This document shows, in pieces, positions 27,821 to 50,050 of a stretch of 64,000 nt of DNA. A program made the translations under genes and the position numbers. This DNA is from Verrucomicrobiota bacterium. GTDB lineage: Bacteria > Verrucomicrobiota > Verrucomicrobiia > Limisphaerales > AAA164-E04. Under the pieces are notes generated by a model. The model saw nothing but the letters and a program-made list of their open reading frames with translations. It was not told where the DNA came from and ran no database searches. The DNA is taken from NCBI GenBank assembly GCA_047947115.1, contig CP170459.1, positions 1,312,001-1,376,000 of the forward strand, given 5' to 3'. Within the stretch, counting starts at the first letter, position 1. Every line of letters starts with the position of its first letter.

Positions 27821-28228
27821 ATGACCTCCATCTCACTCAGCTCTGTTGCGTTCAAACTGGACCAAGAACTACACAGCATATGGGCTGTTTACCTTTTCGG
27901 CTCTCATGCATCTAATCAAGCTATGCCGGAAAGTGATGTAGACATCGCTGTTCTCGGAAAGAGCCCCCATACAGCGACAGATTTGTTCAGTGTGAGTTCA
28001 GACATTGCTATCATGCTGAAGCGGAACGTCGATTTGATCGATTTACGCTCTGTCCCAACTGATCTCCAGGCCCAAGTGGTAACAAAAGGAAAGCGCCACA
28101 TTTTGAGAAATTTTCAAAAAGTGGAGGTCTTCGAAGATCTAGTTTTTTCAAGTTATGCCCGCTTGAATGAAGAGCGAAAGTATATTCTAGCAGACATACA
28201 ACAACGTGGCAGTGTCTATGGCAGATGA
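27821..28228 (+). CDS. Minimal nucleotidyltransferase (MntA-type antitoxin)
   Basis: VYLFGSHA....SDVDIAVL, VDLIDL; overlaps the downstream HEPN gene. Confidence 0.88.
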   Translation: MTSISLSSVAFKLDQELHSIWAVYLFGSHASNQAMPESDVDIAVLGKSPHTATDLFSVSSDIAIMLKRNVDLIDLRSVPTDLQAQVVTKGKRHILRNFQKVEVFEDLVFSSYARLNEERKYILADIQQRGSVYGR

Positions 28229-28658
28229 TACGTTGCTTAACAAGTGTGCGATCATCGAGCGGTGCCTCCAGCGTATCGAACAAGACTACATAGGCTTTGA
28301 AGATCAAATTGAGTCTGATTTCATGCGTCAAGATGCCATTGTCCTTAATATTCAAAGGGCATGTGAGGCATCCATCGATTTGGCCATGCATGTGGTGCGG
28401 TGCCGAAAACTTGGTTTACCAAGAGAAAGTCGGGGTGCGTTTGAATTACTGAGAACATCAGAACTGATGGACCATTCATTGGCTGAAAAAATGATGAAAA
28501 TGGTCTGATTCAGAAACCTTGCTGTTCACAATTACCAGAGTATCAATCTTGAAATCGTTCATTCGATTATTACCAAGCATCTCGATGACTTCCGCCAGCT
28601 CGTTAAATGGTCTATCCAATCAACTATTCAACAACCTCCAAGTAACTTTGTGACTTAG
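28218..28658 (+). pseudogene. HepT/DUF86 HEPN ribonuclease toxin with in-frame stop
   Basis: QDAIVLNIQRACEASIDLA; TGA at 28506-28508, then in frame FRNLAVHNY (RX4HXY) and an open frame to TAG 28658. Confidence 0.85.
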
Positions 28659-28673: not shown

Positions 28674-29654
28674 ATGAAAAAAGCCCTCATTACAGGAATC
28701 ACAGGTCAAGACGGATCCTACCTTGCGGAACTCTTGCTTGAAAAAGGTTACGAGGTCCACGGAATCCTTCGTAGAACCAGCACGTTCAATCGCCAGCGCA
28801 TTGACCCTATCTATCAGAACGCCGACCTGAATCAGGGTAGATTCCATCTACACTACGGAGATTTGGCGGATTCCCCATCCATTTATAAGCTGATCGAGCA
28901 AATCGCTCCGAACGAAATATACAACCTGGCTGCACAGAGTCATGTCAAAGTCAGCTTCGAGAACCCTGAATACACCGCAGACGTGGTTGCCACGGGGACC
29001 TTAAGACTTCTGGAAGCAAATCGCCAAACTGGAGTCATGGCTCGGTTTTACCAGGCCTCGTCGAGCGAAATGTTCGGTAAAGTCAGAGAAACACCCCAAA
29101 CCGAACTGACACCCTTTCACCCAAGAAGTCCCTATGGCGTCGCCAAGGTGTTTGCACACCAGATCACGGTGAATTACCGAGAATCCTACGACATGCACGC
29201 CAGTTGTGGTATCCTGTTCAATCATGAATCACCCCGTCGAGGTGAAAATTTTGTAACGCGCAAAATAACCCAATCGGTTGCCAAGATTCATAAAGGGCTT
29301 CAAGACAAACTTGTTTTAGGAAACCTGGATGCCAAGCGGGATTGGGGTTATGCCAAAGAATATGTCGAAGCCATGTGGCGCATGTTGCAGCAGGATGAAC
29401 CAGATGATTATGTGATCGCAACGAACGAGACACATTCTGTTCAGGAATTCCTCGAAATAGCTTTCAAACATGTAGGAAAAAACTATCAAGACTACGTGGA
29501 AACATCCTCTGCATACTACCGACCAGCGGAAGTGGATCTCCTGATAGGAGACTACACTAAAGCCAAAACCAAACTAGGCTGGCAGCCAGAAACAACTTTT
29601 GAAGGGTTGGTAAAACTGATGGTCGACTCTGATTTGGAGGCATTAAACGGCTAG
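28674..29654 (+). CDS. gmd: GDP-mannose 4,6-dehydratase
   Basis: [42 protein letters not shown]. Confidence 0.95.
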
Positions 29655-30124
29655 GGTAGCCCGTGACGTCCCTGTCGCGGAGAGAGATTCGGACAAGTAA
29701 TGTATCCGGCCGACTGCGAGATCCCTGATCCGTCATCTTTTATCAACCACCCGTCCCGCAGTTGCGGGTCTAGAGAACACAGAGGACACAGAGAGGAAAG
29801 AGTGGGAGATGAAGGTTTATTTTGCACTGTTCTACCGAACAGCCCAAAATAAACCTTCAGACTGTCAGCCCTGCGGGCAGCAACAGGTAGATCGGATCTT
29901 CTCGCGTTCTTTGGTAGGGATGGGCTGCTGCCCGTCCATGGATGACAGTTGCTTTCATAAACGCTTTAACCAATCAAAGCCGGATAACTTACGATCCCTT
30001 TTAAGTGTACTGCCTTTGAGGTTCCTTTGCCTTTTCATTCGAAAAATCAAAGGAAACTCAGAACTCTGTGCTCCTCAGTGTCCTCTAATGAGGTGCAACC
30101 GAGCGGGTGGTGAACATAACAATA

Positions 30125-30643
30125 ATGGCCCTTCTGGAAGAACCAAAACTTACAACCTCCCCATTAACCAAATCCTGCCAGGAGATGGTCTTAGCGGGTG
30201 GTCGGTTGAGTCAACTGCTTGGATTCCCCAAGTCAATAGGGCAAATATACGGTTTACTCATGTTTACGGATAAACCAATGTCTGCTGAGGACATCGGAAC
30301 AACTTTGTCCGTTAGCAAAGCAACCATCAGTAATAGCATTCGGCAGTTATCCAGTTGGGGAATCATTAGGCAAGTATGGATCCAAGGAGATCGCAAAGAT
30401 CACTATGAAGTGATTGAAGATTTTAGGGCTGTGATCAGGGCGGCAATGTCCGAAGTCATCAAGCCAAGAATCAATTCTTCGGGCCAACGGATTGAGCGCA
30501 TTTCATCATTCCTGGAAGAGGAAAATCAGTCTGGAGAAATCACACCAGACCTTTTTCAACTCCGAAAGCGCCGGCTTAAATCCATGACCAAGCACCATCA
30601 AGCCATTGGCAAGATGATACCGATGCTAGAAAAGCTGTTTTGA
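30125..30643 (+). CDS. GbsR/MarR family transcriptional regulator
   Basis: LGFPKSIGQIYGLL...PMSAEDI...LSVSKATIS..IRQL..WG.I..V...GDRKDHY. Confidence 0.85.
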   Translation: MALLEEPKLTTSPLTKSCQEMVLAGGRLSQLLGFPKSIGQIYGLLMFTDKPMSAEDIGTTLSVSKATISNSIRQLSSWGIIRQVWIQGDRKDHYEVIEDFRAVIRAAMSEVIKPRINSSGQRIERISSFLEEENQSGEITPDLFQLRKRRLKSMTKHHQAIGKMIPMLEKLF

Positions 30644-31237
30644 TCGGAGGTAGATCTTGACGTTTCTGGCGATTAGGTAAAATCCCGCGACTGCGTGGAT
30701 CCCCGGCGCGTAAGGTATTAGATCTGCCACTTTTTTTATTCACCACCTGTTCGGCTGCACCGCACTAGAGGCACAGAGATTCGAGAGTGGAAAGAGAAGG
30801 CTAAAAGGAAGAGAGAGTTGATGTTTTATTTTGTAATGTTCTTTTGAACAGCCCAAAATAAAACATCAAAGCCTCAGCCCTGCGGGCGGCAGGGTAGATT
30901 AGATCGTCCCTGGTGCGCCATGATAGGTAGAGCGTAAAGTGTGTCCCGTCGACTGTGGAGTCACTGTCGCGCGGTCATCAACGCCAATCGTTACCAATAA
31001 CGTTTAAATCTGTAGAATAACCATCAGTAATCGAATCCTTTTTAGTGTGCAATCTTTACACTTTATTCGACGATTTGACTTAAATCCTCAAATAAAGTGA
31101 AAAACCCCTCAAGCTCGATACTTTTAATTTCTCTCTCGAATCTCTGTGTCCTCAATCCCGCGACTGCGGGAGGGTGGTGAAAAAAGCACCGCGCCTCTAG
31201 TCCCGCTTGCGGGACGAACGTGAGATCCTATTACACA

Positions 31238-32209
31238 ATGTCAACATACCTCGTCACCGGTGTTGCCGGATTTATCGCATCCAAAACAGCTGAGTTCCTC
31301 CTTAGTGAGGGGCATACAGTGGTAGGTGTGGATAATATGAATGATTACTACGATGTCCGACTCAAAGAGCATCGTTTGGAAAATCTGCAATCCCAGCCTA
31401 ATTTTATATTTCATCAGCTGGATATCGAATCACAAGCTGACCTTGATGACTTGTTCAAGCAACACATCTTCAACGGCGTCCTCAATCTCGCAGCAAGAGC
31501 GGGGGTACGATACAGCTTGGAAAACCCACACGTCTACATGACGACCAACGCAATGGGCACGCTTAACTTGCTCGAATGCATGCGTCATCATGATGTGGAG
31601 AAAATGGTTTTGGCTTCGACGTCCTCCCTTTACGCGGGGCAGCAGATGCCGTTTACGGAAAAACTTCCAGTAAATACTCCCATTTCTCCTTATGCAGCTT
31701 CTAAAAAGGCAGCAGAGGTGATGTGTTATTCCTATCACAATCTTTTTCAACTCGATATATCAGTTGTCCGGTATTTTACGGTTTTTGGACCCTGTGGCCG
31801 CCCCGATATGTCCATTTTTCGGTTCATTAAATGGATTGCCGAAGAAACGCCAATTGAGTTGTTTGGAGATGGATCGCAATCCAGAGATTTTACCTTTGTA
31901 GACGATATCGCCAAAGGAAGCATTGCAGCACTCAAACCAATAGGATATGAAATTTTTAATTTAGGTGGTGGGAACAATCCCATTTCGCTAAACCAGATTA
32001 TTCAATGGATTGAAGAAAGTTTGGGTAAGAAAGCAATTATTGAAAACCAACCCTTCCATAAAGCGGACATGAAATCAACTTGGGCAGACATATCAAAAGC
32101 TGAGTCAATGTTAGAGTGGAAGCCTGAGATCGATATTAAAGAAGGCGTTCTCAAATGTGTGGAATGGTACCAGCAAAACCATTCCTGGCTCAAAGATATC
32201 AAACTGTAG
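31238..32209 (+). CDS. NAD-dependent epimerase (UDP-glucuronate 4-epimerase-like)
   Basis: TGVAGFIAS, LAARAGVRYS, PYAASKK, RYFTVFGP.GRPDM. Confidence 0.88.
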   Translation: MSTYLVTGVAGFIASKTAEFLLSEGHTVVGVDNMNDYYDVRLKEHRLENLQSQPNFIFHQLDIESQADLDDLFKQHIFNGVLNLAARAGVRYSLENPHVYMTTNAMGTLNLLECMRHHDVEKMVLASTSSLYAGQQMPFTEKLPVNTPISPYAASKKAAEVMCYSYHNLFQLDISVVRYFTVFGPCGRPDMSIFRFIKWIAEETPIELFGDGSQSRDFTFVDDIAKGSIAALKPIGYEIFNLGGGNNPISLNQIIQWIEESLGKKAIIENQPFHKADMKSTWADISKAESMLEWKPEIDIKEGVLKCVEWYQQNHSWLKDIKL

Positions 32210-32604
32210 GTAGCCCAATATCTCAGATTCACATTCGCAGGTAGATCAGAAAAGTGTATCCCGTTGACCGCGGAATCCCTGATCCTCTGTGAAAGGTAGA
32301 GCGTGACGTCCCTGTCGCGCTGGATAGATCTCCCGATAAATCGGGACTGATCCGCAATGCACCGGTAGGGATAGGCTGCTGCCTGTCCGTCGAATGCCAA
32401 GCATATCCAAATTTTCAATAACCGTTCAAATACCAGAAAACATACAACACCTTTTAAGTGTGACACCTTTTGTTTTTCTTTGTAATTACGGCTGGAATTA
32501 CAAAGAAAAACAAAAAACATCCTTTTTAACTCTGCAACCTCCCAACCTCTAGTGACCGCAGCTATGCTGAAAGTCCCGTGGCTGCGGGAGGTGGTGAAGA
32601 AAAA

Positions 32605-33894
32605 ATGCAAAAGACAACTATCGCAATCGTAGGCCTCGGCTATGTAGGTCTTCCACTTGGACTTCAGTTCGCCCGATCCGGTGTGAATGTCATCGGCTTG
32701 GATGTAGATAATTCCAAAGTGGATGCACTCAACCAAGGAAGAAGCTATATCAAGCACATCGCTGCTTCCGACATTCAGGAAGCAGTCAATAAAGGATGCT
32801 TTTCTGCTTCTACTGACTTTTCTAAAGTAACGGAAGTTGAAGCCGTCCTTATATGTGTGCCGACGCCACTGGACCAACATCGTGAACCTGATATTAGTTA
32901 TGTAATCAAGAGCGGAGAAGCCATCGCCCCTTTCTTAAAACCACCAGAAGGGGGAAGGAAGAAACTCATTGTTCTCGAATCGACGACCTATCCAGGAACG
33001 ACAGATACAGACCTTCGAGAAGTGCTTGAGAAAGGATCGGGATTGAAAGCTGGAGAAGATTTTCACCTGGCCTACTCGCCTGAACGAGAAGATCCAGGTC
33101 GCACTGATCATTCGGTAAAAAGCATACCAAAGGTGATGGGAGGATACACCTCCGACTGCCTGGAACGTTGCACGGAACTTTATCTGACTGCCCTTGATAA
33201 AGTGCATCCAGTCAAGTCTTGCCGCATAGCCGAAGCAACGAAATTGACCGAAAACATTTTTCGATCGGTGAACATTGCACTGGTCAACGAACTGAAATTG
33301 GTTTTTCACAAAATGGACATTGATGTGTGGGATGTCGTCGATGCAGCAGCAACCAAACCCTTTGGATACATGCCATTTTATCCAGGACCGGGATTAGGGG
33401 GACACTGCATTCCCATTGATCCATTTTACCTGACATGGAAAGCACGTGAGTACGAACAACACACCCGATTCATCGAATTGGCTGGTGAAATAAACACAGC
33501 CATGCCAGACTATGTGATATCCCGAGTGGCCGATGCTCTGAATGACGAAGGTAAATCCATCAAAGGAAGCCGGATCTTGTTGCTTGGTTTGGCCTACAAA
33601 CCCAATGTGGATGATGATCGTGAAAGCCCCAGTTACCGATTGATTGAAAAACTGGAACACAAAGGAGCCGAAGTTGCATACAACGACCCCCATGTTCCCG
33701 AAATCCGGCCGACCAGAGAATTCCCGCAATACGCAGGTCGAAAGTCGCAAGAAATTTCAGATGACTACGATTTGATCCTCCTGGCAACACACCACAAAGA
33801 ATACAAGGGATTTGATTTCAGCAATTACACGATTCCAATCGTGGACACACGCAATTGCATCACCAAACGACCCGATAAATACTACCAGGCATAG
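32605..33894 (+). CDS. Nucleotide-sugar dehydrogenase (WbpA-like UDP-GlcNAc 6-dehydrogenase)
   Basis: GLGYVGLP, LESTTYPGTT, SPEREDPG, GPGLGGHCIPIDP, DDRESPS. Confidence 0.9.
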   Translation: MQKTTIAIVGLGYVGLPLGLQFARSGVNVIGLDVDNSKVDALNQGRSYIKHIAASDIQEAVNKGCFSASTDFSKVTEVEAVLICVPTPLDQHREPDISYVIKSGEAIAPFLKPPEGGRKKLIVLESTTYPGTTDTDLREVLEKGSGLKAGEDFHLAYSPEREDPGRTDHSVKSIPKVMGGYTSDCLERCTELYLTALDKVHPVKSCRIAEATKLTENIFRSVNIALVNELKLVFHKMDIDVWDVVDAAATKPFGYMPFYPGPGLGGHCIPIDPFYLTWKAREYEQHTRFIELAGEINTAMPDYVISRVADALNDEGKSIKGSRILLLGLAYKPNVDDDRESPSYRLIEKLEHKGAEVAYNDPHVPEIRPTREFPQYAGRKSQEISDDYDLILLATHHKEYKGFDFSNYTIPIVDTRNCITKRPDKYYQA

Positions 33895-34595
33895 GTAGCT
33901 CGTAAAGTTTATCCCGTCGACTGCGGGATCCCTGTCGCGCCAGGTAGATCTCCCGATAAATCGGGACTGGTCCGCCACCATTATTTACCACCCGTTCGGC
34001 TGCGCCTCACTAGAGAACACAGAGGACACGGAGAGAAGAAAGGAAGCAGTGTTATTGTTTTGATCCGTTCATGCGAACAAATCAAAACAATAACACAAAC
34101 CGTCAGCCCCTCGGGCAAGTAAGGTAGTTCGTGACGTCCCCGTCGCGAGAAGTTATCCCATGGGCTGCAGGATTTCTACCTCGTTGCAAGGTAGATCGGA
34201 CCGTCCCTGGTCCGCACAACGTCTACTACATTCTTATTACGAAAACTATAAGGCACACGAATACTTTTAAGTGTGCTACTTTTTGATTTCTTAGGTTTTG
34301 TCCCAAACCTAAGAAATCAAAAAACCTCTGTGGTCCTCTGTGCTCTCAAGTGAGGAATCGAACGGGTGGTGAATAAAACAAAAACTCTGCGCTACCTCAT
34401 ACGAATCTCCCCATCTCAACCCCGCGGCTGCGGGAGGCGGTTAATACATCTGTGAAAATCTGTGACATCTGCGGATAAAAACAAACCAGCAAAAGCCCAA
34501 AAGCAATGGAACACGTTCTGTTCGGCATTTCTGGGGCTCAAGATAAAATTGGGAGCTGCATATACGTTTGAAGAGTAATCATTAATTGATCCAGT

Positions 34596-34913
34596 ATGCA
34601 TAATCTTCACATTCTACCTGTTCCACTGCTGAAGGAGCTAAAGGAAGTGGCACATAATTTCGAGTCATCAGGAATTCAATTAATACTTTTCGGATCTTTC
34701 GCGACTGGAAATGCGCGATCTACATCAGATCTGGATCTGGCCTTTGATAGTCGAGCTACCTCGGGGCAAGAGATCCGACAGCTTTACGGCCGTATCGATG
34801 ATTTACACACCATTCGCTCGGTGGATTTAGTAGACCTGCAAAAAGTCGATCCTGGAGTAGCTGAGGAAATAAAAAATAACGGACGGATACTCTCCGAATG
34901 CCTTGCTGATTGA
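34596..34913 (+). CDS. Minimal nucleotidyltransferase (MNT), orphan
   Basis: LILFGSFATG....SDLDLAF, VDLVDL. Confidence 0.85.
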   Translation: MHNLHILPVPLLKELKEVAHNFESSGIQLILFGSFATGNARSTSDLDLAFDSRATSGQEIRQLYGRIDDLHTIRSVDLVDLQKVDPGVAEEIKNNGRILSECLAD

Positions 34914-35386
34914 TTCACCACCCGTTCGATTGCACCTCACTAGAGAACACAGAGGGCACAGAGAGGGCGGGGAGACGTTGTTTTATTTTGGGCTATTCAA
35001 TTGAACAGCCCAAAATAAAACAGCAAACCATCAGTTCCGCGACCGTGGGACAGGCTGAAAGGTAGATCGGATCATCCCTGATCCGCATAGCGCCCAGAGC
35101 ATTCAACACCCCGCTCGTATCATGAAAACAAAAAATGATTCACACCCTTTTAAGTGTGCTACCTTTTTGATTTCTTTGGTTTTTTCCGAAAACCTAAGAA
35201 ATCAAAAAACTCTGTGGCCCTCTGAAACTAGATTGTCCCGTCGACTTCGGGATGAACTCAAGTGCCAATTACTCACTACAGCGCTGAAAGTCCCGCGGCT
35301 GCGGGAGGTGGTTAATAAAAAATCCGCCTTCCAACGACATTAATAAAGATCTGCGATCATCTGCGAAATCTGCGGTTAAACACATC

Positions 35387-36319
35387 ATGCGTATTCTAGT
35401 AACAGGAGGAGCCGGATTCCTCGGCAGCCACCTCTGCGATCGGCTCATCGAGCAGGGCCACGAAGTCATCTGCCTCGACAACTTTTTCACCGGAGATAAA
35501 CAGAACATCCGACACTTGCTCAGCCACGATCATTTCGAGTTAATCCGCCACGACGTTATTGATCCGTTCAAAGCAGAAGTAGACCAAATCTACAACTTGG
35601 CCTGTCCGGCATCACCGGTTCATTATCAACACAACCCCATTAAAACTATCAAAACATCGGTGATGGGAGCAATAAATGCGTTAGGATTGGCAAAAAGAAC
35701 CGGAGCACGAGTATTGCAAGCCTCTACATCGGAGGTCTACGGCGATCCAGAGGTGCACCCGCAAACCGAGGCATACCGTGGAAACGTCAACCCCATTGGC
35801 CCACGATCTTGTTACGACGAAGGCAAACGAGTCGCTGAAACCTTGTTCTTCGATTACCATCGGCAGAATAAAGTAAACATAAGGGTGATGCGTATCTTCA
35901 ATACCTACGGCCCCAGAATGCATCCGCATGACGGACGAGTTGTATCAAATTTCATTGTGCAGGCATTAAACAATGAGCCCATTACAGTTTATGGAGATGG
36001 ATCACAAACCCGATCCTTTTGTTATATGGATGATTTGCTGGATGGTATGATTCGATTGATGAACCACGATTCGTTAACCGGACCGGTGAACATCGGCAAT
36101 CCGGGCGAATTCACGATTCTGGAACTTGCTCAAAAAGTAATTGAAAAAACAGGCTCAAAATCAGAAATCATCCACAAAGACCTCCCAACCGACGATCCGT
36201 TACAACGTAAACCAGATATAACCTTAGCCAAAAACGAACTCGACTGGGAACCAAAAATCAACCTGGACCAAGGCCTGGACAAAACCATCACCTATTTCAG
36301 GACACTTTTAGATAGGTAG
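35387..36319 (+). CDS. UDP-glucuronic acid decarboxylase (UXS-like)
   Basis: [46 protein letters not shown]. Confidence 0.92.
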
Positions 36320-36856
36320 ATCGGACCGTCCCTGGTCCGCCACCATCTTAATTCACCACCCGTTCGATTCCTCACTAGAGGACACAGAGATCACAGAGAG
36401 AAGAGGTGAGATGATGATTTATTTCAGCCCGCTCTATCGAACAAACTGAAATAAATCATCAAACTGTCAGCCCAGGTAGAACGGATCGTCCCTGATCCGC
36501 TGGTAAGGTAGAGCGTAAAGTTTATCCCGTCGGCTGCGGGATCTCAGTACTGGGGGTAGAGATCCCGACCTGTCGGGACTGCCTGTCCGCAAATTCTGGA
36601 CCGCAATCACAGACGTATTCAACGAATAGAAGTCAAATAAACATACGATCACCTTTTCAGTGCGAATACTTTTGGTTTTCTTTGGAATTGCAGCTAGAAA
36701 TTCCAAAGAAAACCAAAAACCTCCCTTTACTCTCTGTGGTCCTCCCAATCTCTAGTGACCGCAGGACGCTCTCTCTTGAAGGTAAATTGCGCTGAAAGTC
36801 CCGCGACCGCGGGAGGTGGTGAACAAAAAAACTCTGCGTGAGAAAACACCTAAAAT

Positions 36857-37108
36857 ATGATACTCCAGTACATTGAGAAAGCGCTTAGCCTGGCTCATTA
36901 TGAGATCATCGATGACGAAGATCCCTATTATGGTGAAGTACCTGGATTGGATGGAGTATTGGCTAGTGGAAAAACACTTGAAGATTGTCGTTACCAATTA
37001 GCCCAAGTGGTGGAGGATTGGATACTATACAGCATCGCCAACAAATTACCCATTAATTCACTCGAAGGGATTACCGTCAAAGTACCCGAAATGGTGGCAA
37101 ATGACTGA
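36857..37108 (+). CDS. HicB-like antitoxin, orphan
   Basis: YYGEVPGLDGVLASGKTLEDCR..L..VVEDWI. Confidence 0.8.
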   Translation: MILQYIEKALSLAHYEIIDDEDPYYGEVPGLDGVLASGKTLEDCRYQLAQVVEDWILYSIANKLPINSLEGITVKVPEMVAND

Positions 37109-37334
37109 TGGGACGTTTAAATCCGTCGAATAACCATCAGTAAACGAACCCTTTTAAGTGTGCCCCCATTTGCTTTTGTTTGGAGTTTTCGAATGAGAAT
37201 CCCAAACAAAAGCAAAAATCTCCCAGTCTCAAAAAAAACTCTCACGAATCTCCCAATTTCAAGAGACCGCAGGGAACGGGTGGTGAACAAAAACTGTCTC
37301 CAGACCACATCCTAAAGTGTTGCATGTAGTATAG

Positions 37335-37676
37335 ATGGAATTCATCGAAACACCCCATTTCACTAATCTGATTACCCAATACGTTCCTGATGAACACTAC
37401 CGTGCGCTACAACTCGAATTGCAAGCCAACCCTGAAAAGGGGGATCTCATTTCCGGCTCCGGTGGACTTCGGAAGATTAGGGTCGGTTTACCTGGAAGTG
37501 GGAAGCGTGGATCGGCCCGGGTGATTTATCTGTATCTCAAGATTGAAAATCTCATCTACTTTTTGTTGATCTATCGTAAATCCAAATCCGAAAACCTCAC
37601 CCGATCCCAGGTAAGCGAACTACGAGCGCTTGCCGATCAAATCAAGCAGGCCTATCGCCATGAAAGCAGAAAATAA
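37335..37676 (+). CDS. RelE/HigB-like toxin
   Basis: FIETPHF...NPEKGDLISGSGGLRKIRV....GKRGSARVIY...Y.KS..ENL. Confidence 0.85.
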   Translation: MEFIETPHFTNLITQYVPDEHYRALQLELQANPEKGDLISGSGGLRKIRVGLPGSGKRGSARVIYLYLKIENLIYFLLIYRKSKSENLTRSQVSELRALADQIKQAYRHESRK

Positions 37677-37983
37677 AAGAGAATTACCGGAATTCAGTTT
37701 TAAGGACTTAAAACATAGCCTGGGGCAAGCATTGAGAGAGGCGAAAGATAATGGCACGTGCCGAAAGATTAAATTACCGGAACCAATCGTTGAAATCCCG
37801 CCGAAGGAGATAAGAAGAATACGCACTCAGCTTCAAGTAAGCCAATCCGTATTTGCCGCGATGCTGAATGTTCCATTGAAAACGGCCGTTAGCTGGGAAA
37901 CCGGACTACACAAGCCAACCAGAGCGGCATTACGTCTATTAGACATTGCACGGAAGCATCCAGATATTCTTTTTGAAGCTTAA
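37660..37983 (+). CDS. XRE-HTH antitoxin (HigA-like)
   Basis: IRRIRTQLQVSQSVFAAMLNV...VSWETG..KP..AALRLL; overlaps the toxin. Confidence 0.85.
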   Translation: MKAENKRELPEFSFKDLKHSLGQALREAKDNGTCRKIKLPEPIVEIPPKEIRRIRTQLQVSQSVFAAMLNVPLKTAVSWETGLHKPTRAALRLLDIARKHPDILFEA

Positions 37984-38623
37984 TTTACCACCCGCTTGGA
38001 TGTGTAAGGTAGATCGGGCCATCTCTGGTCTGCCACAATAGGTAGCCCACAATGGTAGGGATGAGTTGCTGCTCGTCCGTTCATCCGCCACCAATTATAT
38101 TCACCACCCGTCTTGCTGCGCGCGACTAGAGAACACAGAGGGCACTGAGAGAAAAGAGAAGGAAAGGGAAGGGAGGAGTTGATGTTTTTATTTCGCCCTG
38201 TTCTGTCGAACAAACCGAAATAAAACCACAAACTGTCAGCCCTGCGGGCGGCATGGTAGTCCGCGACGTCCCTGTCGTGAAGGTAGCTCTCCCGATACAT
38301 CGGGACTGGTCCGCCGTGACAGGTAGAGCGTATAGTTTATCCCGTCGACTGCGGGATCCCTGTCGTGCGGTCATTAACGCCAATCGTATCCAACAACGTT
38401 TAAATCCGTAGAATAACCATCAGTAAACGAACCCTTTTAAGTGTGCCATCTTAAGTTTTTCTTTGTTGTTTTCATCCGAAAAGACCAAAGAAAAACTTAA
38501 ACCTCTCAAGACTTAAACATCCTCTCTCGAATCTCTGTGTCCTCAATCCCGCGACTGCGGGAGGGTGGTGTAAATTAAATTCTACGTCCCTGCGACTCCG
38601 CGTGAGCAAAAAACAAGCAAGCC

Positions 38624-39151
38624 ATGGACTTCAAACAAGTCGACGCACTAGCCAGCCAAGAACCCCCACTATCCTATCTGGTTATTGGTGGCTATGCAGT
38701 CGCCGCCCATGGATATTCAAGGTTAACCTTTGACATAGATATTTTAATTCGTCGAGTTGATAAAGAAGTTTGGCATGAACGATGTTTAAACATGGGATTG
38801 CGATGTATTGGCCAGTCAAACTCATTTTCTCAATATGATGGCACAGACAAAAGATTGGACCTGATGTTTGTTGATGATCAATCATTCAATAAAATGAATG
38901 CTGATTGCATCACACAAGACTACGATCAGATCCATACCAAGGTAGTAGGATTGGATCATCTAATTGCATTGAAGTTGCACGCGTTGAAAAACGCACCAGA
39001 GCACCGTGTATCAAAAGATTTCAACGACATAGAAATGTTGGCGAAAAATCACAGATTGCAGTTAAAAAGCGAGCATTACAGAGGATTTTTTCTTAAATAC
39101 GGCACCGACAAGATATACGAAACACTGCTGAGATGCCTTAAATATGATTAA
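38624..39151 (+). CDS. Pol-beta-superfamily nucleotidyltransferase
   Basis: YLVIGGYAVAAHGYSRLTFDIDIL, LIALK....R..KD..DI. Confidence 0.8.
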   Translation: MDFKQVDALASQEPPLSYLVIGGYAVAAHGYSRLTFDIDILIRRVDKEVWHERCLNMGLRCIGQSNSFSQYDGTDKRLDLMFVDDQSFNKMNADCITQDYDQIHTKVVGLDHLIALKLHALKNAPEHRVSKDFNDIEMLAKNHRLQLKSEHYRGFFLKYGTDKIYETLLRCLKYD

Positions 39152-39341
39152 ACCTGTTCAAGAACATGCAGATTTGGAACTACCAACGGATTCACCGCCG
39201 GTTCAAGTTCCGCCTCAAATTTCCCTGGATACAATGCAGCGAAGAATTGAGGAGATTGCGAAGATGTTCCCACAGAACGTTCCCACACCCGAAGAACGAC
39301 TCAGAACCAAAATAGACGTCCTTTTCGAGTTAAAGGAATAG
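39144..39341 (+). CDS. Small hypothetical protein coupled to the nucleotidyltransferase
   Basis: 65-aa ORF overlapping the upstream stop and filling the gap to the next spacer. Confidence 0.55.
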   Translation: MIKPVQEHADLELPTDSPPVQVPPQISLDTMQRRIEEIAKMFPQNVPTPEERLRTKIDVLFELKE

Positions 39342-39918
39342 GTATACCACAATGGTAGGGATTGCGCTGCCGCGCGTCCGTTCAGCCGCCACCAATTTTA
39401 TTCACCACCCGTCTTGCTGCGCGCGACTAGAGAACACAGAGGGCACAGAGGGCACAGAGAGAAAAGAGAAGGATAGGGAAGGGAGGAGTTGATGCTTTTA
39501 TTTTGGCCTGTTCTGTCGAACAAACCGAAATAAAACCACAAACAATCAGTCCCGCGACTGCGGGACGGGCGGCATGGTAGTCCGCGACGTCCCTGTCGCG
39601 TAGGTAGCTCTCCCGATACATCGGGACTGATCCGCTGGTAAGGTAGAACGGAAAAGTGAATCCCGTCGACTGCGGGATCCCTGATCCGCCACAAGAGGTA
39701 GGCCACAATGGTAGGTAGATCGGACCGTCCCTGGTCCGCATTAACCCAGACGCATTCGACAAACGTAATCAGTGAACAAACACCAATAAATCTCCTTTAA
39801 CTCTCTGTGGCCCTCCCCACTTCTAGTGACCGCAGCTATGCTGAAAGTCCCGTGACTGCGGGAGGTGGTTTAAATTAGACTTTGTGGTCCTTGTGACTTT
39901 GTGTGAGCGCTAAAACAA

Positions 39919-40146
39919 ATGAAAAAAACACTGACCGCCATTATTCGAGCAGAAGATGATGTTTATGTAGCGCTTAACCCCGAACTGGACATAGCCAGTC
40001 AAGGTGCTACGACCCAACATGCGCTGAGTAATTTGCAAGAAGCTGTTGATTTGTTCCTGGAAACAGCATCAAAGGAGGAAATAGAGGAGCGATTAAGAGG
40101 TGAATCCTTGGTAACACAATTTGTGGCTGAGTATGCCCCCGCTTAA
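39919..40146 (+). CDS. HicB-like antitoxin, orphan
   Basis: YVALNPELDIASQGAT..HALSNLQEAVDLFLE. Confidence 0.85.
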   Translation: MKKTLTAIIRAEDDVYVALNPELDIASQGATTQHALSNLQEAVDLFLETASKEEIEERLRGESLVTQFVAEYAPA

Positions 40147-40505
40147 GAAGTTTATCCCGCCGACTGCGGGATCCCAGTCGCGGCGGTAGGGATAGGCTGC
40201 TGCCTGTCCGCAAAGGTAGATCGGACCGTCCCTGGTCCGCATTAACCCAGACGCATTCGACAAACGTAATCAGTGAACAAACACCAATAAACATTACGTG
40301 ACCTTTTAAGTGGCGCCCCTTTACGTTTTCTTTGACGATTGAACCACAATCTTCAAAGAAAACGTAAAACCCTTAAAGTTCATTACTTACAACTACTCAC
40401 TCAAACCTCTGTGGCCTTCCCTGTCTCTAGTGACCGCAGCTATGCTGAAAGTCCAGTGACTGCGTGAGGTGGCGAACAAAAAATACTGCGTCCCTGCGAC
40501 TCTGC

Positions 40506-40796
40506 GTGAGAATTACACCAAAAGAACAATCAATCATCCGTGAATCGATCCTGGCATTGGACCCAGAATCCTCGATCTACCTATTTGGGTCACGAGTGGA
40601 TGATCACGCGAAAGGTGGTGACATAGATCTATTGGTGATATCCGACAAACTTGAATTCCGAGATCTCTTAAAACTGAGACGGCTTATACTGGACCAGATA
40701 GGTTGGCAGCAATTGGATCTCATCATCAAAAAGTCCACTGAACTGAGTCAACCATTCGTAGAAGAAGCCATCGAAACAGGGATCTTGCTTACGTGA
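40506..40796 (+). CDS. Minimal nucleotidyltransferase (MNT)
   Basis: GTG start; IYLFGSRVDDHAKGGDIDLLV. Confidence 0.85.
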   Translation: MRITPKEQSIIRESILALDPESSIYLFGSRVDDHAKGGDIDLLVISDKLEFRDLLKLRRLILDQIGWQQLDLIIKKSTELSQPFVEEAIETGILLT

Positions 40797-41154
40797 CGCA
40801 TTAAACTCACCACCCGTTCGATACCTCACTAGAGAACACAGAGGACACAGAGAGAAGAGGAGGTGTTTGAAGGTTTATTTTGTAACATTCTATCGAATAT
40901 CCCAAAATAAACCAACAAACTGTCAGTCCAGGTAGATCGGACCGTCTCTGGTCCGTCATAACCTCAAACGCACTCAACAACGCTGATCACTGACGAAGCC
41001 TTTTAAGTGTGCACCCTTTTTGAGTTCTTTGGCGTTCTGAATTAGAACTACAAAGAACTCAAAAATCTCTGTGATCCTCTAGAGACCGCAGGAAACGGGT
41101 GGTAAAACAAAAAATCTGCGACCATCTGCGTAAATCTGCGGATAAATAACAAAC

Positions 41155-41607
41155 GTGAACGATCGTCCGAAAGCACTACTTCAAGCTAACCTCGATGATC
41201 TACTACGGGCCAAAAAACATTTGGATTACTCGTATAGGCAGATAATTAGCTACGATGCGGAATTCGAGGAGTATAATGAAGAACAATTGGAAACCGTGGA
41301 GGCCTTCACAAGTCGGTTTGCACGTTGTGCGGATTTACTGGTGAACAAGGTTCTGAGATCGTTGGATCGTTATGAACTGAAACCGGGAGGGACATTATTA
41401 GATGTGATCAATAGGGCAGAGAAGCGTGGGATTATCTCAAATGTCGGGGAGTTAAGAGAAATGAAAGACATTAGGAACATCATCGCACATGATTACGCGG
41501 GAATCCAAATGGAACAGGTGTTTGAATACTGCAAACAAAAGAAACCACATTTTGACGAAATTTGCCACAACCTGAAGAATTACGTGGATCGTTTGCAGAT
41601 AATTTAA
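41155..41607 (+). CDS. HEPN-domain protein (MNT partner/toxin)
   Basis: EAFTSRFAR..D, DVINRAEKRG, IRNIIAHDY (RX4HXY). Confidence 0.83.
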   Translation: MNDRPKALLQANLDDLLRAKKHLDYSYRQIISYDAEFEEYNEEQLETVEAFTSRFARCADLLVNKVLRSLDRYELKPGGTLLDVINRAEKRGIISNVGELREMKDIRNIIAHDYAGIQMEQVFEYCKQKKPHFDEICHNLKNYVDRLQII

Positions 41608-42229
41608 ATCGAATCATTAATGAATTAATTCACCACCCGGCTCGCTGCGCGCGACTTGAGAGCACAGAGGACACAGAGAGAGAAGGAGGGGATGATGTTT
41701 TATTTCAGCCCGTTCTATCGAACGAACTGAAATAAATCATCAAACTGTCAGCCCAGGTAGATCGGACCGTCCCTGGTCCGCCGGTAAGGTATTTGGAAAA
41801 ACACTATCCCGTCGACTGCGGGATCCCTGGCGCGTAATGGTAGCTCGGATCGTCCCTGATCCGTAAATCCCCAATCGCTGCCAACAACGCTTACAACATA
41901 GAACAAGCAGCCAAATTACGATCTCCTTTTCAGTGCGAATACTTTTGTTTTTCTTTGTTATGACGGCCAGTAATGCCAAAGAAAAACAAAACCTCTCGAT
42001 ACTCTCTGTGGCCCTCCCAATCTCTAGTGACCGCAGCAATGCTGAAAGTCCCGTGACTGCGGGAGGTGGTAAAACAAAAGTCTGCGACCATCTGCGTAAA
42101 TCTGCGGATAAATAACAAAAGCAAAAACTTCTTATAAACACTCTATGCCCCTCCTTTCCTCTAGTGACCGTAGGGAACGGGTGGTTGAACAACAAAAACT
42201 CTGCATCTCCGCGTGAGAAAAGACGAAAA

Positions 42230-42442
42230 ATGAAAGAAATTATATTTGAGGTATTGGAACAACCTATGGGACAGGGGTTTGTTGCTACAGCAGTTGGGAT
42301 AGGTGTTCACACTGAGGCTGACACACTCGAAGATTTACGTCAAAATGTGCGTGAAGCCGTGGATTGCCATTTTGACGATTCAATGGATGCTCCGAAGCTC
42401 ATCCGTCTCCATTTTGTTCGGGATGAGGTATTGGCCAGATGA
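42230..42442 (+). CDS. HicB-like small antitoxin
   Basis: EIIFEV....GFVATA..IGVHTEADTLEDLRQNVREAVDCHF; ATGA overlap with hicA. Confidence 0.78.
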   Translation: MKEIIFEVLEQPMGQGFVATAVGIGVHTEADTLEDLRQNVREAVDCHFDDSMDAPKLIRLHFVRDEVLAR

Positions 42443-42681
42443 GAACACCACGGGATTTATCTGCGAGTGATTTGGAAAAAGCGTTAAAAGGTCTTGGATA
42501 CGAAAAAACACGAAAGAAGGGATCACACATACGATTAACAACAAATTTAGATGGTGTACATCACGAGACAATTCCGAATCATGATCCGATAAAGATTGGA
42601 ACACTGTCAGCTATTCTGAAGAGCATTGCAAATCACCATCCCATGACGGTAAGTGAATTAATGGAGCAATTAGGCTTATAA
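42439..42681 (+). CDS. HicA family toxin
   Basis: LKGLGYEKTRKKGSHIRL...TIPNHDPIKIGTLSAIL. Confidence 0.87.
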   Translation: MRTPRDLSASDLEKALKGLGYEKTRKKGSHIRLTTNLDGVHHETIPNHDPIKIGTLSAILKSIANHHPMTVSELMEQLGL

Positions 42682-43370
42682 GCATTCGAATTCTACACTG
42701 CCCATTTAATTGAAATAATCCAAGCAGTTGGACAGGCGGCAAGGTAGATCTCCCGATAAATCGGGACTGATCCGCAACGAAAGGTAGATCGTAAAGTTTA
42801 TCCCGTCGACTGCAGGATCCCTGGTCCGCATTAGCTCATATGCATTCGACAAACCCGATCCTTAACGAATACCCAGTAGCATACAATGTGCATACCTTTT
42901 GTTTTTCTTTGTAATTACGACTGGAATTCCAAAGAAAAACAAAAACCTCTCATTACTCTCTGTGCCCTCCTTTTCTCTAGTGACCGCAGGGAACGGGTGG
43001 TGAACAAACCAAAACAATACTACAAACTACCAGCCCTGCGAGCAGCAAGGTAGCCCGCAACGCCTCTGTCGCGCAGGTCATTCGGAAAAGTTTACACTAA
43101 TGGGGTCCAACAACGTTCTGCGCGATTAAACGGAAATAAACACACGCACCCCTTTTAATCAGACATTTTTGACTTTCTTAGATGATTTAACCAAAATCCT
43201 CGAAGAAAGTTAAAACCTCTCTCTCTGTGATCCTCCCAATCTCAAGTGAGGAATCGAACGGGTGGTGCAAATTAACCTTTGTGGACCTTGTGACTTTGTG
43301 TGGTAATAATTTGTTTCCTACGCTTGACTGAGACAGAACTTAGATAGTAATGTGGTCCGTCTACACGGTT

Positions 43371-43447
43371 GGTGGCCGTAGTTCAGTTGGTAGAGCCCCA
43401 GATTGTGGTTCTGGTTGTCGCGGGTTCGAGTCCCGTCGGTCACCCCA
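43371..43447 (+). tRNA. tRNA-His (GUG)
   Basis: G-1:C73 pair, acceptor GTGGCCG/CGGTCAC, anticodon arm CCAGA-TTGTGGT-TCTGG, T loop GGTTCGAG, encoded CCA; TTGACT upstream at 43324. Confidence 0.96.
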
Positions 43448-44034: not shown

Positions 44035-45543
44035 GTTGATCCTTAAAAACTCACGATAGGTGCAATTTTATTGGGTTTTTTGCGGTTTTTGCTTCGCCAT
44101 TTCGACCGGGGAAAAGTATAGTTATTGAAGTTCCTGGTCGATTTGCATCTATGAAATTAAAGCTCAAGCCTTCCCAACAACGATCACTCCTTTTTCCCAC
44201 ACTCTCCGAACAGTGTGATCCGCGGCAACCACTCAAAAAATTGGCCGACGCCATTCCTTGGGATAAGTTCGAAGACGCTTTTTCGGATTACTACAGCGAG
44301 GTAGGGCGGCCCGCCAAACCCATCCGTTTGATGGTGGGCTTGCTGCTATTGAAACAAATTTAAAATTTGAATGATGAGGTCGTCGTTGAAAGATGGATCC
44401 AGAATCCCTACTACCAGTATTTTTGCGGGATGACGGAATTTGAGTGGGACTTTCCCTGCAATCCATCCGACCTGGTTCATTTTCGAAATCGGATCGGTGA
44501 AGAAGGTGTGCATCTGATCTTTGCAATTACCACTGACCTTCATCGCAATCGAATTGAAAAGGAGAGTGAGATCATTGTGGATACCACGGTTCAGGAAAAG
44601 AACATAACTTTTCCAACGGATAGCAAACTACATTCACGGATTATCGGTCGATGCTGGCGCCTGGCCGACAAGTATGGAATCAAACTGCGACGGCGTTATC
44701 GCAAAGAGCTGCGAGAATGTTTGCTGAGCCAAAGATGGAGGTGTCATCCTGGAGAAGCCAAGCTTGCACGCAAGGCGCAAAAACGTATCAAGATAATCGC
44801 GGGTATCCTTCTGCGTGAACTGGATAGAAAACTGCCCAAAAAAAATTCTTAAAGCTCACCTTGAAGATTTCAAACTTTACCTTCGAGTCTTGAATCAACA
44901 GAAGAACGACAAGAATAAGGTCTACTCTTTGCATGAACCGCAGGCCTACTGCATCGCCAAGGGCAAGGAAAACAAGAAGTATGAGTATGGCAGTAAAGCA
45001 TCGGTCGCCGTAACAGCAGATACAGGCATCATTGTCAGTGTTGTTGCTCATCCTGAAAACATATATGATGGCCATACTTTACCGGAAGTCTTCGAATTAG
45101 CGGAAGCAGTCATGGGAGAACGACCGAAGAAGGCCATTGTGGATCGTGGCTATCGAGGCGAAAAACATATTGATGGAACGGACATACTTTCACCCGAGAA
45201 CGGGAAAGCTGAACAAACCAAATCAGAGAAGGCAAAGATGCGACAACGGTTTCGAAAACGAAGCGGAATCGAAGCAATCATAAGCCATCTCAAACATGAT
45301 TTCCGATTATTGAGATGTTACTTGAAAGGCAGTCTGGGAGATACAATGAATTTGTTGCTGGCTGCCTGTGCCTGGAATCTGAAGAAATGGATGGGGGCCG
45401 TTTCTTTTCGTCAAATATACCTAATTTGTAACCAGATTAAGGCACTCATGTCATCCCTCAGGGGACTTTTTTCAAATCTGACACGTTACAAAAGGTTCGT
45501 TGGATTCCGATAGGAATTCTTAATCCCTTTTTTAAGGATCAAC
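44035..45543 (+). mobile_element. IS5-family element with disrupted transposase
   Basis: TIR GTTGATCCTTAAAAA/TTTTTAAGGATCAAC; 6-bp TSD TAGTTA; transposase 44151-45513 split by TAA 44361 and a frameshift in an A run near 44840. Confidence 0.88.
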
Positions 45544-45569
45544 TAGTTAATTGACTCACAAAACAACAA

Positions 45570-46450
45570 GAACGGTTCATTACCTGTAATTAGATTCCCA
45601 AGACGCCGGCTCATCCGTTTTATTACCGACTCAATCAGGTTTTTGCTGAGTGTGGTTTTGATGTCTATGTTGAAGGGTTGTGCGCCATGTTTTGCAAGAA
45701 TTTTGGCAGTTCAGGCATTGCCCCGGAATTTATTTACGAATGATTTTTATTTGATATTCTTAAGATCTTAAAGGTCAGAAAAATATCGCATGGCAATTTT
45801 ATGACAGCCTTTGCTTGCGTGAATTTTTCTATAAGTTCCAAAGAAAGAACTCTTGCGTACAACGATTATTCGTCAACCCTTTTCTGATGATGTTTTTCAC
45901 AAAGTTTCCTTTTGGTGCTCGAACAATTCAAAGAAAAAAGTAATTGAAGGGCAAAACGTTATGAGATTGAGATCAAAAGCCTGGATCCCAACTCAGCCAT
46001 GGGCAGCTTAGCATCGTACACAAGGGCGCGGGTGAAGATCGGAAAAATTCCTGCCTTAACTTGCCAATAAATAAAATACCGAGAATCGAAGGTGTGCAGG
46101 CATTCAAGCGCATCGAAATAGGTAGAAGCATAGATTCTTAGAGAGAAGCTCATATAGGCTATCAAAACGGAATCACTAACGAACAGGCATTCCCCATCAG
46201 GCGTTGAAGAGTTGGAAGTCATAAAGGTATACGGCTGAGTCCAAAACAAAGCAAACTTGTGGAGCGAATATTTGCTAATAGGTTTAGAGTAGGAAAAGGA
46301 CGTCGAACTTGGCTCCTAAGATATAAAAAACCACCAAGATTCACACACTGAAATGCGCAGCATTCAATGTCGGGTTGCTTTTGAGGAAAATCTTTTGATT
46401 CGCGAGGGCAAAAAATTTGGAATCGAGATTCGACACAGCTTTGACATCTG
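45570..46450 (+). pseudogene. Decayed IS1182-like (DUF772) transposase remnant
   Basis: Fragments translate to AHPFYYRLNQVFAECGFDVYVEGLC, IAWQFYDSLCLREF and CAAFNVGLLLRKIF; boundaries approximate. Confidence 0.55.
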
Positions 46451-46504
46451 TTTTATCATGGTTTTGGCGAAATGATGCCTCAGGGAGACTTAAAGTTGAC
46501 TTCA

Positions 46505-46550
46505 ATCGGATTTGAACCATCGGATTTGAACCATCGGATTTGAACCATCG
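46505..46550. repeat. Tandem repeat ATCGGATTTGAACC x3
   Basis: Three exact 14-bp copies plus a partial ATCG. Confidence 0.9.
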
Positions 46551-46661
46551 ATCTGTGATGCATCGGGAAATCCATGCGTAGCGATATTTGAATCACTCGG
46601 ATTTTCACATTTTGCACTAATTAAACGGGGTAGTAAGGATAATTCTTATCTGTTAATCAAA

Positions 46662-47738
46662 ATGGAACAATTGTATGTAATTAAAACTGACTGGCACGAT
46701 CAAGTTGTTCAGAGGGCGTTTGAGAAAATTGGATACTCCCCTGCTGAAGTTCATCAGGTTGTTAGAAATTGTCGCGCTGCTCTTGAGAATGGAGTGCGCA
46801 CACATAATGCGATCAAAGCAATTCATTTAGAAGCCTTGTTTGGTGTTCGGCAAGGAGGAACAACTTGTGGTGCAAACATACTAAAACAAAAGCGAAAATT
46901 TAGTGCTGTGAAATTTTGGGACGCACAAAAAAAGATTGGTCCTGCCGTCGCATATGAAGCCGTCGATGAATGTGCAGCCATGGCGGAGGACTATGGGGTG
47001 GGTGTTGTGGCCGTCGATAATGCGTGGCATTATTTTTGGGGAGGAGGTTATGTCCTAGAACTAGCGCAACGCGGATTTATTGGATTCACTATCTGTACCG
47101 CTTTACTCGCCGAAGTTGTGCCTTATGGAGGCTCCAAGCCAGTTTTAGGTACTAATCCGCATTCTTGGGGACTGCCAACGCAAGAAGTATGCGGATTTCC
47201 TGTTTTAGTTGATTGGGCTACTTCGGTAATAAGTATGGGAAAAGCACAACAACTTGCCCGTGAGGGAAAATCATTACCTTATCAATGTGCCGTCAATCAG
47301 AAGGGTAATGTGACAAATGACCCAAAACAAATCGCAGGACTTTTGCCTTTCGGGTTACACAAAGGTTATGGGCTAAGTCTGATCAACGAATTGATCGCTG
47401 GAATTATAGGTGGATGGAAGCCCACCGAAAGGGGAAGATTCGCGGAAGGATATAAAAAATCAAGTACTACCTTCCTCTTCCTCGCCCTTCATCCCGAGGC
47501 TATTGAGGGTAATTTTGTGAGTTCTGACAGAAAAGAAAACTTAAAATCGATTGTGAATGACATCCTTTGTAAAGAGAATCAAGGGGCCATTTTACCGGGG
47601 CAATTAGAATATGAAGCTCGTTGCAGATGTCAACAGGCTGGAGGCCTACTATTAACTGAAGCTGAATTTAATTCCTTCAATGAAATTGCTAAAAAAAACC
47701 AATTGGACACACACTCGCCAGTCCGATACAGATCTTGA
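46662..47738 (+). CDS. Ldh_2 family (malate/L-lactate/sulfolactate-type) oxidoreductase
   Basis: V.PYGG..P.LGTNP, LVDWATS, HKGYGLSL..E, LPGQ.E. Confidence 0.85.
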   Translation: MEQLYVIKTDWHDQVVQRAFEKIGYSPAEVHQVVRNCRAALENGVRTHNAIKAIHLEALFGVRQGGTTCGANILKQKRKFSAVKFWDAQKKIGPAVAYEAVDECAAMAEDYGVGVVAVDNAWHYFWGGGYVLELAQRGFIGFTICTALLAEVVPYGGSKPVLGTNPHSWGLPTQEVCGFPVLVDWATSVISMGKAQQLAREGKSLPYQCAVNQKGNVTNDPKQIAGLLPFGLHKGYGLSLINELIAGIIGGWKPTERGRFAEGYKKSSTTFLFLALHPEAIEGNFVSSDRKENLKSIVNDILCKENQGAILPGQLEYEARCRCQQAGGLLLTEAEFNSFNEIAKKNQLDTHSPVRYRS

Positions 47739-47751
47739 ACTCCATATATTT

Positions 47752-48540: not shown

Positions 48541-48569
48541 GTTGACTGAATACGTACGGTAGGAGAAGA

Positions 48570-49271: not shown

Positions 49272-49306
49272 CACTTCACGTGAGTTGGATCCTCAAGTAT
49301 TATACA

Positions 49307-49893: not shown

Positions 49894-50050
49894 CAGGGGA
49901 TGGCCAACTTGATTGGCAAGGAAGTCGGTGATTATTGCAAATTGTGGATGCACGCCTTCTTCACCAATCCGATTTCAAAATGAACTAGGTCGTATGGATT
50001 GCATGGTAATTACCAATCAAATTCTATTATACCACAAAACTAATATTAAT

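Follow-up and report, generated by a model that had tools for sequence, protein, structure and literature searches.

Compound hairpin elements between the genes of a surface-glycan array in a Verrucomicrobiota bacterium: a candidate case of repeat-driven gene shuffling

In many environmental bacteria, the surface-glycan loci are strewn with small toxin-antitoxin (TA) genes and odd repeats. The locus described here is an unusually clean case in which to ask how these arrive: each gene has one polar element, living strains vary, and a candidate enzyme family can be named. The locus is an array of sugar genes and small TA-type genes, separated by related, hairpin-rich spacers, in a 64,000-nucleotide stretch (the window, G000:C1:1312001-1376000) of a Verrucomicrobiota genome (G000, a single contig C1 of 6.08 Mb). 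Has a dedicated system captured and arranged these genes as cassettes, as an initial annotation of the sequence proposed, or have the repeats themselves given the genes places at which to recombine? Below, G001-G008 are genomes of relatives, and L-numbers denote individual loci or contigs (metagenome strain contigs or GTDB loci).

Our best explanation, to which we give a probability of roughly 0.58, is that hairpin repeats accreted between the genes and that homology- and microhomology-driven shuffling between direct repeats, not a site-specific integrase, then rearranged them. The anatomy, the kinship of the outer arms to GxxExxY nuclease cassettes, the differences among strains, and the scatter of the breakpoints were seen directly; the rest of the mechanism is what we infer from them.

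Anatomy of the array

From gmd (28674) to tRNA-His (43372-43447), every open reading frame (ORF) with a family match is on the plus strand, and between the genes lie 13 related spacers, 226-701 bp long; the initial annotation had read the same one-strand layout, with spacers of 230-700 bp. A complete spacer follows the module order given there, from a repetitive extragenic palindrome (REP) with a GGTAG foot through a left arm, hairpin A (hpA), further REPs, the word AAGTG, and hairpin B (hpB) to a right arm. Left arm and hpA occur in nine spacers (1, 2, 4, 5, 6, 8, 9, 11, and 12), hpB is missing from spacer 9, and spacers 3, 7, 10, and 13 comprise right halves alone, which reproduces the earlier count of eight complete spacers, one (39342) without hpB, and four right halves. 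Spacer 13 has two right halves and spacer 12 an extra right arm, and a 78-bp direct repeat is common to spacers 9 and 10 (39713, 40214). Across the 13 spacers GGTAG is found 39 times on the plus strand and 5 times on the minus strand.

The small TA cargo was recognized correctly, but by our count there are 11 small TA-type ORFs where ten had been listed, and a HEPN remnant lies near 34490-34580; the GbsR regulator named in the same annotation rests on a CudC/GbsR-type match under the cutoff. No recombinase lies in the array, as had been stated, though genes for an integron integrase, for Y1/RAYT-type proteins, and for one GxxExxY nuclease lie elsewhere in the genome. A region so rich in repeats might be suspected of being an assembly chimera, but the array adjacencies are reproduced by independent metagenome contigs (L151, 1634 bp at 96%; L152; L156; L161) and by Logan contigs, which reduces that suspicion to practically nothing.

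Gene order and cargo in relatives and strains

The initial annotation called for a comparison of cassette order and content, and both differ. Six genes are common to G000 and G002, at 71-84% identity. Their order is dehydrogenase, UDP-xylose-synthase-like (UXS-like), HicB-a, nucleotidyltransferase (NTase), HicB-b, HicB-c in G000 and dehydrogenase, NTase, HicB-b, HicB-a, HicB-c, UXS-like in G002. (The UXS-like name of the gene at 35387..36319 is one we presume from general knowledge of the family.) In G002, moreover, TA genes adjoin gmd with no element between. A GbsR-like gene was found in one of the seven other genus genomes only, and these accordingly offered no clean copy of the operon free of elements.

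Contigs from close strains, with genes mostly 91-99.8% identical to those of G000, show changes of single cassettes and modules. The dehydrogenase stands behind the HEPN gene in L156, the DUF7387 cassette is gone exactly across the 78-bp direct repeat in L153, and L152 has an hpB where spacer 9 has none. Orthologous spacers have swapped whole modules between flanking genes that are 97-99.8% identical. Other cargo is found in L150, L158, and L159 (a PIN pair, an AAA-DUF4143 gene, or GxxExxY at the second locus). Three of the 14 metagenome matches were not treated as array copies, two being unrelated simple arms (L148, L160) and one being used for the second locus only (L154).

This second glycan locus (genome 1389-1399 kb) lies 34-44 kb downstream of the array. 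Searched by BLAST, the spacers yielded 553 hits, which fall into 66 clusters, with 344 in the array, 77 in the second locus, and the remainder short matches. The elements are thus confined to two glycan loci and are not strewn over the genome like ordinary miniature inverted-repeat transposable elements (MITEs), an outcome that would have counted against the earlier proposal. The second locus (G000:C1:1389134-1399067) has six elements, some of its cargo genes are oriented against them, and its TA, AAA-DUF4143, and GxxExxY cargo varies among strain contigs. From window 44151-52000 on to genome position 1388000, glycan genes are riddled with insertion sequence (IS) transposases, several of them frameshifted, and hold no hairpin elements. 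In L149 and L150, a unit of ~190 bp with another dispersed repeat is tandemly duplicated in the middle of an element, and in L150 an inverted PIN TA pair comes after it.

Scattered breakpoints and decaying toxins

Where did the genes part and rejoin? In about seven events, inspected by eye, the breakpoints lie in the REP or linker, behind the left arm, behind AAGTG, at the short periodic repeat before a start codon (the periodic arm), and at microhomologies of 6-13 bp within genes. Each of the half spacers 7 and 10 is a deletion that fuses the first hicA codons to the interior of an element, the element of spacer 11 parts an MNT gene (minimal nucleotidyltransferase) from the HEPN gene after it, and the GTG start of the MNT gene at 40506 is likely supplied by the periodic arm of spacer 10. 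In four of eight TA modules (the eight include the pair upstream of gmd) the toxin is lost or broken. Because the breakpoints fall in different modules and microhomologies and half of the toxins are lost, the evidence favors repeat-mediated recombination over a site-specific capture system. Scattered breakpoints and TA genes without elements are what recombination between direct repeats would predict, not chemistry at one site. Of the capture or shuffling system first proposed, the shuffling is borne out by the differing order and cargo, but dedicated capture at a fixed site is not, given the scattered breakpoints and the element-free TA genes of G002.

It is nonetheless conceivable, if doubtful, that a dedicated cassette system works here without an integrase, with a GxxExxY nuclease or RAYT recognizing the folded hpA/hpB or the arms and driving gene capture and reordering; its effect would be to diversify the surface glycan and stock defense genes. 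Contigs from four of four sequencing runs begin to align at 41137, in the periodic arm before the HEPN start, as a preferred site would have it, but a homology boundary explains this position equally well. The breakpoints spread beyond any single site, the cargo without elements in G002, the dead half of the toxins, and the lack of an enzyme linked to the array all speak against such a system. What keeps it alive is the fixed geometry, polarity, and confinement of the elements described below.

Outer arms and the GxxExxY nuclease

What are the elements made of? The outer arms are termini of a multi-phylum hairpin element, full copies of which have a GxxExxY nuclease gene inside. The arm pattern was found in 107 GTDB loci, whose titles name Verrucomicrobia, Desulfobacterota, Chlamydiae, Lentisphaeria, Kiritimatiellales, and others, and in these other organisms the arm is a dispersed, MITE-like repeat, mostly in simple hairpins of 85-180 bp. 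The neighbors there are mostly housekeeping genes (72 of 136 listed neighbors scanned, 35 loci), with glycan or MNT genes beside the copies in L043, L057, L072, and L108. In L078 and L088 the same two arms bracket an intact GxxExxY gene (TIGR04256), and gene-less copies of 111-156 bp occur in the same record as a gene-bearing one. Viral contigs gave no match to the arm. In the Chlamydiae record L074 (727-2395), 1.6 kb between two arms holds what looks by eye like the remnant of an IS110-type transposase.

Among the relatives, L203, L212, and L214 have GxxExxY in the layout of the array, right arm, gene, left arm, and share the word CTTTGTG..GTGAG; in the second glycan locus of G002, L154, and L158 the GxxExxY gene comes immediately before a left arm. 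The short periodic repeats in front of start codons are right arms of sister families. The cassettes and their gene-less copies thus have arm sequence and layout in common with the array, but elsewhere the hairpins are simple and dispersed, whereas those of the array are compound, with hpA and hpB, and saturate a glycan operon. A GxxExxY match is present in all four genomes with a clear hpA (broken in G004), while G003, G005, and G006 have neither. This co-occurrence, in few, related, and incomplete genomes, is what a nuclease-driven cassette system would lead one to expect.

The spacer elements also have the terminal inverted repeats of MITEs, and they resemble the MITEs and MITE-flanked units described in the part of PMC3184786 used here in being non-autonomous and in looking like internal deletions of a coding element. 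In contrast to MITEs, they have shown no linked DDE transposase, and they are not dispersed genome-wide, all 15 full hpA copies lying in the two loci. No clean empty site that would establish a target-site duplication was found, the flanks being judged by eye. The variable parts of the arms match alike within a spacer (10.5), across a gene (11.8), and at random (11.3), which leaves the choice of pairing partners undecided by this measure.

GGTAG hairpins and a possible RNA role

REPs of the GTAG family are defined by a GTAG foot before a short GC-rich palindrome. The GGTAG hairpins of the array are, by this definition and their spread, an ordinary genome-wide dispersed REP family: 160 of their 175 genome sites lie outside the two glycan loci, and a stem follows GGTAG in 3.3% of cases, versus 0.2-1.3% with ten pentamers taken as controls (sampled one in five). 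G000 has five Y1 matches, one of which (2361226) is flanked by GTAG REPs of different sequence and another (2128322) by non-GTAG palindromes. The first, at G000:C1:2360880-2361940, is a Y1/RAYT-type gene amid tandem GTAG-footed palindromes, a probable REPtron; at G000:C1:2128000-2128870, an IS200/RAYT-like gene has its own short palindromes on its flanks.

Bacterial interspersed mosaic elements (BIMEs) of E. coli, Neisseria intergenic mosaic elements (NIMEs), and REP/RAYT systems are intergenic palindrome mosaics tied to recombination, and NIMEs interleave with pilin genes (as covered in the portions of PMC3184786 and PMC5581495 drawn on here). The spacers are likewise intergenic palindromic mosaics, with GTAG-footed REP hairpins after stop codons. 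In contrast to BIMEs and NIMEs, the REPs of the array are enclosed by 45-bp GxxExxY-element arms and two 50-nt AT-rich hairpins, and the compound unit is polar, confined to its loci, and present once per gene.

Could the elements act as RNA instead? Stems in a polycistronic transcript might be cut by an RNase III-like enzyme or might stabilize segments, tuning the expression of each gene. The elements are co-oriented with the operon, the arms pair across the element in six of six predicted folds, and the REPs of G000 face as the upstream gene does, after same-strand stops (39 versus 3 of 160). In Coxiella, RNase III excises an rRNA intervening sequence (IVS) (PMC4990558, part of the article), and the ORF-bearing IVSs described there resemble our elements in having inverted arms able to pair around an insert; unlike them, the array elements sit in mRNA spacers and have no ORF inside. 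Membership among rRNA IVSs was rejected on location, the region having no rRNA. Nor does the transcribed strand show a G-U bias: in 20 of 22 copies of hpA the bottom strand gives the better fold, with 8 G.T versus 37 A.C cells, though distinct mismatch types number 8 versus 12 (p=0.5) and hpB leans the opposite way (14 versus 8). An Rfam scan gave tRNA-His as the sole match above threshold in the region, and an RNA role leaves the gene reordering unexplained. As the main explanation it is improbable; as a side effect it is compatible with repeat accretion and shuffling. A terminator scan was near chance (23 versus 16.8+/-4.2).

Hairpins A and B

The lineage-specific parts are two related, co-varying hairpins of ~50 nt, and hpA, the one modelled, appears almost only in this genus. 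In hpA, 50 nt long and almost free of indels, pairing reaches 85.9% against 74.0% in shuffles (0 of 500 as high), and 14 of 23 pairs show two-sided changes, i.e., covariation. For hpB, of similar size and plan, 295 of 342 cells are Watson-Crick (19 of 21 rows), against a shuffled mean of 228 and maximum of 253. Conserved boxes surround a variable, often unpaired segment, and the likeness between the boxes of hpA and hpB would make the element pseudo-symmetric.

A covariance model of hpA, as the initial annotation had suggested building, matches five of 22 family genomes, namely G000, G002, G004, G007, and, through a weak contig-end hit left uncounted, G008. None was found in G001, G003, G005, or G006, which are 79-93% complete. 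The profile search of G000 gave 15 full copies, of which the array holds 9 and the second glycan locus 6, all in a single orientation. The elements of G002 and G007 are again in glycan loci among TA genes, and the short G004 contig has TA-type cargo only.

The tip of hpA suggests another reading, that hpA is a LexA operator and the cargo under SOS control. Six of the 17 perfect sites in the genome for TGTTC-N4-GAACA, which we take to be the LexA motif, form the tip of an hpA; one more stands before a dinB-like gene, and at lexA there is a copy with one mismatch. But only 8 of 22 aligned hpA copies are perfect, the seven G002 copies differ by 1-6 mismatches while largely keeping their pairing, a tip of this kind is missing from hpB, the N4 spacing is not enriched genome-wide, and promoter-like sites are near chance (19 versus 22.5), all of which makes this reading very improbable. 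The lexA start itself (G000:C1:3336525-3336576, L174) lies in a 22-bp inverted repeat with a LexA-box-like tip and the first codons in its 3' arm, and the hpA model matches this repeat weakly (E 1.3e-4). In front of the dinB-like gene (G000:C1:4310090-4310290) lie a LexA-box-like site and a long tandem array of heptamers.

Is the array an integron?

Co-oriented genes with one structured site each, TA-rich cargo, and strain-variable order liken the array to an integron or a cluster of attC sites lacking integrases (CALIN), as these are presented in the part of PMC5027507 used here. Spacers that are variant attC sites with an ACC/GGT core, used by a distant integrase, would account for this. An integron integrase (TIGR02249, above cutoff) does exist at G000:C1:741267, 570 kb away, with its own array (G000:C1:739000-742223) of three to four 127-nt attC sites with mixed AAC/ACC and GGT cores, and the arms of our elements start NYYYACC-like and end GGTRAN-like. 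We tested the ACC/GGT variant because the sites of this integron carry such cores. The attC scan, at relaxed settings, gave three matches at the integron and one among the 13 spacers, with shuffles giving 0-2; a stricter version recovered one control match. Taken as a giant attC, a spacer measures 303-475 bp from arm to arm versus 57-141 bp. Its would-be central spacer is conserved and paired at 3-5 of 5 positions, and its would-be L box is paired at 1-5 of 8, the reverse of the definition, which includes a paired L box and an unpaired, non-conserved central spacer (PMC5027507, in the same part). The spacers were accordingly rejected as attC sites, and the variant-attC account is scarcely credible.

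Nor do the crossovers share a fixed position, the breakpoints of about seven events lying in several modules. The array also differs from integrons and CALINs in having neither attI nor integrase at the locus, in the core sugar enzymes among its cassettes, and in its often decayed toxins. A CRISPR array was rejected too, since units of 226-701 bp separate whole genes here, versus identical repeats of 23-47 bp that alternate with unique spacers of like length. The initial annotation was right that attC cores are not evident and that this is not CRISPR. The array is integron-like in outcome and BIME/NIME-like in make-up, and it is not a member of the integrons.

How the array may have formed

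Each spacer is a stack of GxxExxY-element arms, sister-family arms, GTAG-type REPs, and the two lineage-specific 50-nt hairpins, and such stacks occupy all gaps of the glycan operon, facing one way. The arms may first have been spread by a GxxExxY PD-(D/E)XK nuclease and the REPs by a RAYT, both in trans, with new hairpins and small TA genes landing inside or beside older ones. A gene with one element could then loop out and re-enter at another element, giving integron-like behavior without integron chemistry. Recombination at the repeats would delete, add, and reorder neighboring genes between strains, and the TA genes would be mostly passengers that decay toxin first.

Several points weigh against this account. 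Neither an excised circle nor a reaction was seen. The one intact GxxExxY gene of G000 (PF13366, PD-(D/E)XK; G000:C1:3797711) has arms of related design with a different word and lies 2.4 Mb from the array. The G002 order was read partly via two 95-bp contig overlaps at the ends (the middle is one contig), and its scaffold has an N and a misplaced segment. The L156 dehydrogenase, 83% identical, may be a second allele or copy. Finally, the fixed length, invariant boxes, covariation, polarity, and two-locus confinement of hpA and hpB exceed what passive accretion would give and hint at selection or at a protein that binds them; a dedicated system, too, would show a single element to each gene, one shared polarity, and hairpins of constant geometry with conserved boxes.

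Features of the array

The features are collected in Table 1. Apart from these, two genes for four-helix-bundle proteins (PF05635) lie between inverted heptamer arrays in L164 and L165.

Table 1. Genes and spacers in and next to the array, in window coordinates
Feature	Position	Strand	Remarks
MNT-HEPN pair	27821..28640	+	Upstream of gmd, no element; HEPN premature stop 28506-28508
gmd, GDP-mannose 4,6-dehydratase	28674..29654	+	Stop codon touches first GGTAG hairpin
Spacer 1, complete	29655..30124	+	REP, left arm 29741, hpA 29805-29875, REPs, AAGTG, hpB 29995-30072, right arm
HTH regulator, GbsR/CudC-like (below cutoff)	30125..30643	+	
Spacer 2, complete element	30644..31237	+	
NAD-dependent epimerase	31238..32209	+	
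Spacer 3, REPs and right half	32210..32604	+	
Nucleotide-sugar dehydrogenase	32605..33894	+	Behind another gene in strain contig L156
Spacer 4, complete	33895..34595	+	ATCTG-type periodic arm 34448-34478; HEPN gene remnant (HEPN intact in G002)
MNT	34596..34913	+	Partner toxin lost
Spacer 5, complete	34914..35386	+	Periodic arm 35349-35379
Epimerase/dehydratase, UXS-like	35387..36319	+	
Spacer 6, complete element	36320..36856	+	
HicB-like (UPF0150)	36857..37108	+	HicA partner deleted after 6 codons
Spacer 7, right half	37109..37334	+	Microhomology deletion joins hicA start to element interior; hpB differs in L151
RelE-type toxin and HTH antitoxin	37335..37983	+	Intact pair
Spacer 8, complete element	37984..38623	+	
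AbiEii-like nucleotidyltransferase and small coupled ORF	38624..39341	+	
Spacer 9, without hpB	39342..39918	+	hpB in L152; CTTTGTG-type periodic arm 39880-39907
HicB-like (DUF7387)	39919..40146	+	HicA deleted after 7 codons; entire cassette missing in L153
Spacer 10, right half	40147..40510	+	
MNT	40506..40796	+	
Spacer 11, complete	40797..41154	+	Separates MNT from HEPN; right half replaced in L156
HEPN (HepT-like)	41155..41607	+	
Spacer 12, complete, extra right arm	41608..42229	+	
Small ORF and hicA	42230..42681	+	No family match for the small ORF, which is HicB-like by its position
Spacer 13, REPs and two right halves	42682..43371	+	Then tRNA leader
tRNA-His	43372..43447	+	Immediately 3' of gmd in G002

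What the array means

A literature search, with most subscription papers and supplements outside it, found no description of this array or of GxxExxY hairpin cassettes. What the locus adds is the compound double-hairpin form, the saturation of a glycan operon, and the strain-level reordering of core sugar genes. If a nuclease-driven system is at work, with a small PD-(D/E)XK enzyme cutting the folded elements behind each gene and sugar-synthesis and defense genes thereby excised, captured, and reordered, it would be a heritable shuffle of a cell-surface glycan locus, and the very large, uncharacterized GxxExxY family would gain a function. If GxxExxY drives the repeats, a cassette mechanism would be added beside integrons and pdif modules. 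If the repeats merely offer homology, the array would still show selfish hairpins turning an operon into one that can be shuffled.

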